Part shown: piece after piece, positions 1 through 480 of the stretch
Layout: every line of letters begins with the position of its first letter
How positions within the stretch are numbered: position 1 is the stretch's first letter
Assembly (NCBI RefSeq): GCF_003334335.1
Contig: NZ_QOWQ01000185.1
Reading direction: 5' to 3' (one strand)
Source: Escherichia coli
Lineage (GTDB): Bacteria; Pseudomonadota; Gammaproteobacteria; Enterobacterales; Enterobacteriaceae
DNA: 480 bases
The notes under the pieces: model-generated
What the model was told of the DNA's origin: nothing
The model's database searches: none
Seen by the model: the letters and a program-made list of their open reading frames with translations, nothing else
Position numbers and translations under genes: made by a program

Positions 1-395
1 CCCAGTGCCTGTACCAGACGTTCCGTGATAAGGCGGTCTGCCTTGCTGGGTGTGACTTCACCGGACGGGTGATTGTGTGCCAGCACCACAGCAGCGGCAT
101 TGTGATACAGGGCGCGTTTAATCACTTCACGGGGATGGACTTCCGTGCGGTTGATGGTGCCGGTGAAGAGGGTTTCACCGGCAATCAGCTGATTCTGGTT
201 GTTCAGATACAGCACCCGGAACTCTTCACGCTCCAGTCCCGCCATGTTCAGAATCAGCCATTCTCGTGCCGCACGGGTGGAGGTGAAGGCCACGCCGGGT
301 TCATGAAGATGGCGGTCCAGGGTTTTCAGGGCCCGTTGAATGAGGCTGCGCTCGCCGGGCGTCATCGCGCCGGGCAGAAAGGAAAGCTGTTGCAT
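1..395 (-). CDS. yeeS: RadC-like JAB/MPN-domain protein (UPF0758 family), N-terminal 131 codons; C-terminus lies beyond position 1
   Basis: Minus-strand ORF starting at ATG (plus coords 393-395) and open to the window edge. Translation: MQQLSFLPGAMTPGERSLIQRALKTLDRHLHEPGVAFTSTRAAREWLILNMAGLEREEFRVLYLNNQNQLIAGETLFTGTINRTEVHPREVIKRALYHNAAAVVLAHNHPSGEVTPSKADRLITERLVQAL(G). It contains the JAMM signature H-x-H-x7-S-x2-D (HNHPSGEVTPSKAD) typical of RadC/JAB proteins. A GGAGAG Shine-Dalgarno lies 7 nt upstream of the ATG. From memory the sequence closely resembles E. coli YeeS, but the paralogs YkfG and YfjY are very similar and I cannot tell them apart without a search, so the symbol is tentative. 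An alternative in-frame ATG at 408-410 would add MERST to the N-terminus. Confidence 0.85.
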   Translation of the reverse strand, partial: MQQLSFLPGAMTPGERSLIQRALKTLDRHLHEPGVAFTSTRAAREWLILNMAGLEREEFRVLYLNNQNQLIAGETLFTGTINRTEVHPREVIKRALYHNAAAVVLAHNHPSGEVTPSKADRLITERLVQAL

Positions 396-402
396 TGTAC
401 TT

Positions 403-408
403 CTCTCC
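403..408 (-). promoter_or_regulatory. Shine-Dalgarno / ribosome-binding site for the RadC-like CDS
   Basis: Minus-strand GGAGAG (plus-strand CTCTCC at 403-408), followed by a 7-nt spacer (AAGTACA) and then the ATG at 393-395. Sequence and spacing are canonical. Confidence 0.7.
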
Positions 409-410
409 AT

Positions 411-480
411 TCAGTCGATGATGCGCATAATGGCGCTGCATTCCGGATGCTGCAGGGCGTAATCCCGCAGCCGGTAATAA
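411..480 (-). CDS. 3' end of upstream co-directional gene; probably an antirestriction protein of the KlcA/ArdB-like YfjX/YafX family (assigned by synteny)
   Basis: Minus-strand frame is open from the window edge to a TGA stop at plus coords 411-413. Translation of the tail: YYRLRDYALQHPECSAIMRIID*. It is in the same orientation as the RadC-like gene and 15 bp upstream of its start. The family assignment rests on the conserved gene order antirestriction -> radC-like in CP4-57 and CP4-6 type islands (established knowledge), not on recognising these 22 residues. In K-12 CP4-44 the gene at this position is yeeR instead. Confidence 0.5.
   Translation of the reverse strand, partial: YYRLRDYALQHPECSAIMRIID

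Follow-up and report, generated by a model that had tools for sequence, protein, structure and literature searches.

The CP4-type backbone module of accessory genes is known from Escherichia coli K-12 and from many pathogenicity islands (PMC6480617, PMC6174562), and it has been described as multi-copy (PMC6480617). Two K-12 elements carry a five-gene operon which adjoins the att site (PMC5371832). These are lfgABCDE (yfjX-yfjY-ypjJ-yfjZ-ypjF) of CP4-57 and yafX-ykfG-ykfH-yafW-ykfI of CP4-6, and in both the order is antirestriction protein, RadC/JAB protein, DUF987 protein, antitoxin and toxin. The related genes of CP4-44 are arranged as yeeP-flu-yeeR-yeeS-yeeT-cbeA-cbtA-yeeW. ArdB proteins from an island of uropathogenic E. 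coli, from CP4-6 and from CP4-57 relieved all four type I restriction families in vivo and did not inhibit EcoKI in vitro, the activity being demonstrated for YafX and YfjX (PMC2836571). CbtA/CbeA, YkfI/YafW and YpjF/YfjZ are type IV toxin-antitoxin pairs targeting FtsZ (PMC5371832). Here we describe a stretch of 480 nucleotides from E. coli (assembly GCF_003334335.1, contig NZ_QOWQ01000185.1), called the window throughout. We regard it, with a probability of about 0.9, as the junction between an ardB-type and a yeeS-type gene in the conserved distal operon of a tRNA-associated E. coli island with a P4-type integrase, i.e., a CP4-like island. We identify the island by its gene context and by the variation in copy number, not by composition. 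The module itself is already known, few accessory gene blocks of E. coli are duplicated as often, and nothing about it is new here.

Among 5,426 complete E. coli genomes only one, EC416, matched the window at 100% (NZ_AP027404.1, 4,883,767-4,884,246). The RefSeq genes under this match are yeeS, annotated as "JAB domain-containing protein" (WP_001186711.1), and a gene for an "antirestriction protein" (WP_000849588.1). The window contains the following features.

1..395, minus strand: the 5' 395 nt of a yeeS-type RadC-like JAB/MPN gene, comprising the start codon and codons 2-131 of 158; 82 nt more lie beyond position 1.
36..77, minus strand: JAMM metal-site motif HNHPSGEVTPSKAD, codons 107-120, with H-x-H-x7-S-x2-D intact as read from the sequence.
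396..410, minus strand: intergenic spacer ATGGAGAGAAGTACA of 15 nt, from the sequence and the RefSeq gene ends.
411..480, minus strand: 3' end of an ArdB/KlcA-family antirestriction gene (161 aa), consisting of a partial codon, 22 codons reading YYRLRDYALQHPECSAIMRIID and TGA at 413..411.

Translation of minus-strand frame 1 gave the last 22 amino acids of the antirestriction protein and its stop at 479..411. The RadC-like JAB frame opens at ATG 395..393 and leaves the window at its edge, its first 131 codons reading MQQLSFLPGAMTPGERSLIQRALKTLDRHL...HNHPSGEVTPSKAD...QAL. Pfam and structure searches were performed with the full-length proteins of the identical EC416 locus, the ArdB part inside the window being 22 codons only. 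They bore out the gene pair that had been proposed from the letters alone, a putative antirestriction gene followed by a RadC-like JAB gene. The first protein matched Antirestrict (PF03230) at 3.2e-37 and the second RadC (PF04002) at 1.7e-44 over residues 38-157. Against known structures, the antirestriction protein matched PDB 2WJ9, which we take to be the structure of ArdB from CFT073, at 2.8e-100 and KlcA (2KMG) at 4.6e-21, and YeeS matched a RadC homologue (2QLC) at 3.3e-25. YeeS scored 149.6 bits with TIGR00608 (cut-off 133.85), and its protein identity was 99.3% to K-12 YeeS, 81.6% to YkfG and 77.9% to LfgB/YfjY. The housekeeping RadC/YicR was tried as an assignment and rejected. The equivalog model NF000642 gave 159.8 bits where its cut-off is 180, and the match covered no more than positions 88-211 of the 212-position profile, so YeeS is not of the YicR type, since both the score is too low and the N-terminal part is missing.

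The two genes are closely spaced. A Shine-Dalgarno site, GGAGAG, occupies 408..403, and because it sits 7 nt ahead of the yeeS ATG within the 15-nt spacer, the arrangement suggests that the ardB-type and yeeS-type genes share a transcript and are translated one shortly after the other. A consensus-pattern scan of the minus strand found no terminator-like site between the DUF932 gene and the DUF957 gene; this absence and the 15-nt spacing both fit a putative single operon running from DUF932 to DUF957.

The EC416 copy lies in an island of approximately 51 kb, the edge of which is at the tRNA-Leu(CAA) gene leuX, about 47.7 kb from the window. A tyrosine integrase gene begins 200 nt from leuX. 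Its product of 422 aa contains the Pfam domains Arm-DNA-bind_3, Phage_int_M and Phage_integrase, and it was 39% identical over its full length to IntA of CP4-57, in an alignment of 402 aa (E 4e-91). From leuX onwards the island reads as follows, on the minus strand.

Integrase side, minus strand: the 422-aa integrase gene, dptFGH and dndBCDE, fecIRABCDE, IS66.
Next, minus strand: genes for an AlpA-like regulator, a YfjI helicase-like protein and a YeeP-like GTPase, and a small RNA of the IsrC/IS102 type.
Next, minus strand: agn43, a hypothetical gene of 2.5 kb, irmA, DUF905, DUF932, the antirestriction gene and yeeS.
Distal end, minus strand: yeeT (DUF987), the YeeU/CbeA antitoxin gene, the CbtA toxin gene, DUF5983, DUF957 and two pseudogene fragments.

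Thus every component of the conserved backbone was present in EC416, i.e., GTPase, DUF932, ArdB, RadC/JAB, DUF987, YeeU/CbeA and CbtA, all by annotation and the last five also by Pfam. The sequence-only reading had predicted a DUF987 gene and a YeeU/CbeA-CbtA pair downstream of the radC-like gene, and these do follow directly after yeeS on the minus strand (DUF987 at 1.7e-40, CbeA_antitoxin at 5.6e-53, CbtA_toxin at 1.1e-61). It had also proposed to look for an integrase with a flanking tRNA gene or direct repeats; the integrase was found beside leuX and, at the opposite side, an imperfect repeat of the 3' end of this tRNA gene, so that the proposal of a horizontally acquired CP4-like island is in agreement with the P4-type integrase, leuX and the degenerate distal repeat of the identical locus. 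On one point the sequence-only reading went astray, namely in expecting strain-specific cargo beyond position 1. Beyond position 1 lies instead the conserved end of the island, with yeeT, yeeU, cbtA, DUF5983, DUF957 and then the degenerate leuX repeat, while the variable cargo (Dnd/Dpt, Fec, IS66 and Ag43) is situated between the integrase and the module, past position 480. This layout recurs in the K-12 elements CP4-57 and CP4-6 (PMC5371832).

The distal boundary was recognised by a degenerate repeat of the leuX 3' end at approximately 17,310-17,465 of locus L001 (EC416 record approximately 4,881,076-4,881,231), which starts about 480 nt beyond the end of the DUF957 gene. The copy reads TTTGAGTCCGGCCTTCG-CACC-TTCGCACC-TTCGCACCA. 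It shares with the leuX 3' end an exact core of 14 nt, GAGTCCGGCCTTCG, which is followed by about 130 nt resembling the sequence downstream of leuX, and over an alignment of 186 columns the mean column identity was 80%. Probes of 17 and 23 nt from the leuX 3' end, allowing up to 3 mismatches, gave no match to a distal att site, because a triplicated 8-nt unit, TTCGCACC, interrupts the copy; the 14-nt core was found by a k-mer scan. With this repeat as its far end, about 2.5 kb below position 1 of the window, the island has a length of about 51 kb. Such an island would have entered by integrase-mediated recombination into the leuX 3' end, with duplication of the att core; being carried by elements of this kind, the module may have persisted and multiplied at different tRNA sites.

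The copy number of the window points in the same direction. A copy was present in 4,797 of the 5,426 complete genomes and absent from 629, with an identity of at least 90% for the best copy of each matching record, and the number of copies per genome had a median of 2 and a maximum of 13. Nearly all places were chromosomal (12,880 of 12,887), the other 7 being on plasmids. The module of eight genes and 3.8 kb, from DUF957 to DUF932, was covered by at least 80% in one place in 4,279 genomes (about 79%), and the matching genomes had a median of 3 places and up to 16. Two copies with 99.6% identity to the window were inspected, in E2865 and DA33133. Both lie in the leuX/yjh region; the layout in E2865 is the same as in EC416, and in DA33133 a truncated cbtA is followed by different genes.

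Outside E. coli, the order ArdB-YeeS-YeeT-YeeU-CbtA was found in a collection with one genome per species in Escherichia albertii, where YeeS was 99% identical, and at 56-82% identity in Citrobacter, Kluyvera, Buttiauxella, Leclercia, Siccibacter, Tenebrionibacter, Yersinia, Serratia, Rahnella, Cedecea, Kosakonia and Enterobacter. RadC-like homologues with a lower identity (about 50%) occur in Betaproteobacteria and others, and neighbours of the ArdB, YeeT, YeeU or CbtA type were not found beside them at the sensitivity used.

Comparison with the K-12 elements showed both likeness and difference. CP4-44 is the nearest of them in sequence, its yeeS being 97.3% identical to the window over positions 1-366. 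It shares with EC416 the genes downstream, yeeT-cbeA/yeeU-cbtA-yeeW (DUF5983), and upstream Ag43, the GTPase and an IsrC-like RNA. It differs in that it lies beside cobU, has no tRNA gene at its edge and has lost irmA, DUF905, DUF932 and ardB by deletion (PMC6480617). The yeeS gene of CP4-44 is truncated at the 5' end and overlaps or abuts yeeR (L008, 14,308), whereas the window has an intact ardB-yeeS junction. The similarity of the window to K-12 yeeS stops at position 366 for this reason. The EC416 module is at leuX, and the K-12 CP4-44 site, between tmaR and cobU, is empty there (L005 39,557-40,325; record 2,539,557-2,540,325). This tmaR-cobU interval holds only a fragment of an EutP/PduV-like gene (yoeF type) and one hypothetical gene. 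The operons of CP4-57 and CP4-6 adjoin the att end of an island which has a P4-type integrase and lies at a tRNA or tmRNA gene, as in EC416 (PMC5371832). They are paralogues and do not represent the same allele, with a DNA identity to the window of 71.6% (lfgA-lfgB) and 75.9% (yafX-ykfG), respectively; at the protein level the JAB proteins are 78-82% and the ArdB proteins 67-69% identical. In K-12 the module is thus found beside cobU, at ssrA and at thrW, and in EC416 at leuX.

The EC416 island falls among the leuX-associated Fec/Ag43 islands, such as PAI-S88-leuX and PAI-ED1a-leuX, with which it shares the leuX site and the Fec and Ag43 cargo (PMC7545054). Compared by listed properties, these two are 39-57 kb long with about 50% GC (PMC7545054), against about 51 kb and 49.6% in EC416. 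The EC416 island carries, beyond what is listed for S88 and ED1a, the DndBCDE/DptFGH phosphorothioation modification-restriction system and IS66.

The sequence-only reading had taken the GC content of the window as an argument for transfer. Its count of 279 G+C in 480, about 58%, was exact (58.125%), and sub-windows of 120 nt ranged from 54 to 63%. As host background we used 150 kb from three arbitrary places on the EC416 chromosome, in which 480-nt windows had a mean GC of 51.1% with a standard deviation of 4.15%, giving a z of 1.7 for the window. A host background of about 51%, as opposed to one of about 58% as in Klebsiella, had thus been assumed correctly. The comparison itself turned out to be a mixed one. 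The window is raised in GC, as expected, and the eight-gene module departs modestly from the host in codon bias (B 0.279, where the null gives 0.171 +/- 0.034 and attains the module's value in 1% of cases). The excess is modest, however, as 3.8% of the EC416 480-nt windows reach at least 58.1%, which puts the window at the 96th percentile, and in one ordinary 50-kb core stretch 10% do so. The yeeS gene, with 58.5% GC and 65% GC at third codon positions (GC3), is equalled or exceeded in GC3 by 4% of the host open reading frames, and its codon bias is unremarkable (B = 0.424 against 0.436 +/- 0.110 for host segments of equal length). The EC416 backbone from the DUF957 gene to the GTPase gene has 54.4% GC, and the whole island 49.6%, its 1-kb windows spanning 31-61%. 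We consider GC to be weak evidence for transfer, since 3.8% of the host windows are as rich, the codon usage of yeeS is host-like and the island averages 49.6%.

The raised GC is a trait of the radC-like genes as a family and of their module, and not of the whole island. In 19 of 20 Enterobacterales species the radC-like gene (about 51-60% GC) was richer than the rest of the locus (43-59%), and among the K-12 paralogues yeeS has 58.2%, ykfG 58.5% and lfgB 54.2% in elements of 46-52%. In most Enterobacterales the gene had 55-60% GC (GC3 60-69%), even in Yersinia and Enterobacter loci of 43-47% (L011-L049). Two Kosakonia copies were exceptions, with about 51% GC and a GC3 of about 47%. The carrier islands are mosaics which average near the host GC, and the radC-like family is GC-rich wherever found. 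Composition was rejected as decisive proof of transfer, given a GC at the 96th percentile and an undistinctive single-gene codon bias. The lesson is a methodological one: the placement proposed from the letters was correct, yet its GC argument was insufficient alone, and it is context and copy number that identify the island.

These results bear on other ways to explain the window. It could be thought of as ordinary core chromosome, a native repair gene of the radC (yicR) type which is GC-rich by chance and was never transferred horizontally. The 3.8% of host windows with equal GC and the host-like codon usage of yeeS would agree with this. It can hardly be reconciled with a sequence that 629 genomes lack and others carry up to 13 times, that is flanked in EC416 by an integrase, a tRNA gene and an att repeat, and that encodes a protein below the RadC equivalog cut-off, matching positions 88-211 only and thus not YicR; the copy-number and context data already refute it, and we give it next to no credence. 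An origin from a plasmid or from a host of high GC other than E. coli, such as Klebsiella, in which case 58% GC would carry no information, also seems very improbable. PLSDB did contain 17 records matching the window, among them a Klebsiella oxytoca plasmid at 97.7%, 7 places in complete E. coli genomes are on plasmids, and the module occurs in many Enterobacterales. Against this, the best plasmid match was 99.4% compared with 100% for the EC416 chromosome, several of the records called plasmids are mislabelled megabase replicons of 0.8-4.9 Mb, 12,880 of the 12,887 places in E. coli are chromosomal, and the protein identity of YeeS outside Escherichia does not exceed 82%. The K. oxytoca plasmid, 29 kb in size (H35, NZ_LR890315.1 20,117-20,596), carries a copy of the ardB-yeeS junction. 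A phage origin was considered and rejected, the phage collection having offered a single unannotated record of 3.2 kb (H48, OR844783.1, "Escherichia phage ECO111 5-P") at 95.0%.

A more serious competitor, possible though unlikely in our opinion, is that the island is the remnant of a conjugation-related integrative element (an integrative and conjugative element, ICE, or a mobilisable island), with DUF932-ArdB-RadC as the counterpart of the anti-defence cassette for early entry in a plasmid leading region. ArdB and KlcA are antirestriction proteins of plasmids and ICEs (PMC2836571), and the annotation of the approximately 51-kb island contains no phage structural genes. It contains no relaxase, oriT or type IV secretion genes either, however; the integrase belongs with the AlpA-like regulator and the YfjI helicase-like protein to a P4-type set, and as PHROGs has families for each of ArdB, the RadC-like protein and DUF932, phage genomes carry them too. 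The island may be called a defective P4-like prophage or the remnant of an integrative element; it has the P4-type integrase/AlpA/YfjI set yet no capsid and no conjugation genes.

To the placement of the window in a CP4-like island at its distal operon several points can be objected. The context was read at the identical copy in EC416, which shows where such a sequence lies and not where the present copy came from. Nucleotide searches of the window were confined to E. coli genomes, plasmids and phages. The compositional evidence, from host-window GC and codon bias alike, is weak. The distal repeat is degenerate, with TTCGCACC three times and only 14 nt of exact core, and it may be the junction of two successive islands and not a clean attR. 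The protease role discussed below for YeeS, finally, depends on a 78%-identical paralogue and on an assay whose authors allow for contaminating proteases.

Past the repeat, between a truncated nanS and the repeat itself (L001 15,248-17,230), there is a gene for an HNH endonuclease and a pseudogene fragment of a restriction endonuclease that binds phosphorothioated DNA. The repeat could mark a junction with an older island remnant, because the similarity outruns the tRNA end and because the HNH gene and the phosphorothioate-dependent pseudogene lie beyond it. This arrangement suggests a putative tandem accretion of two islands, the older one without its integrase. As the present island holds a complete dndBCDE/dptFGH set, two generations of phosphorothioate-related defence may have met at one locus.

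Considering the function of YeeS, its metal site H-x-H-x7-S-x2-D is complete at residues 107-120 (window 77..36). H-x-H-x7-S-x2-D is the JAMM metal-site motif of JAB/MPN+ domains. The same JAMM motif is carried by the paralogue LfgB (YfjY), which is reported to degrade MqsA and casein and to confer protection from oxidative, acid and heat stress, although contaminating proteases were, according to the authors, not strictly excluded in the assay (PMC10846083). Iyer et al. favour a nucleic-acid substrate for JAB domains of the RadC type (PMC5512222). Judging from its complete JAMM site and from LfgB, to which it is 78% identical, YeeS is most likely a zinc-dependent hydrolase which is expressed together with ArdB, and by analogy with LfgB it is probably a zinc protease. 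The K-12 annotation now names yfjX and yfjY as lfgA and lfgB ("CP4-57 prophage protease"; L009 22,920-23,869), whereas yeeS and ykfG keep their y-names, so the functional claim for LfgB is not extended there to yeeS, the closer paralogue of the window.

YeeS might, at rather long odds, be more than a passive passenger. Its gene begins 15 nt behind the ArdB gene and is followed directly by those for DUF987 and the type IV toxin-antitoxin pair, in an order kept in at least 20 species of Enterobacterales. One may speculate, at the same odds, that it would be a dedicated zinc protease which cuts the antitoxin of its own operon, YeeU/CbeA, and thereby arms CbtA, or which on entry cuts defence or regulatory proteins of the host in the way LfgB acts on MqsA. 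If so, the whole operon would be one cassette for entry and retention. How type IV toxins become activated was stated to be unknown (PMC5371832).

Scans of the window for other elements gave little. Repeats within it were short and at chance level only, and promoter-like sites were no more numerous than in shuffled sequence. Within about 5 kb on one side of the window and 10 kb on the other, no Rfam family was matched except the IsrC/IS102 RNA upstream of agn43. This RNA, in the gap between the GTPase gene and agn43 (L001 28,487-28,723, minus strand), scored 73.9 bits against a gathering score of 46, and its position matches that of isrC in K-12, upstream of flu.

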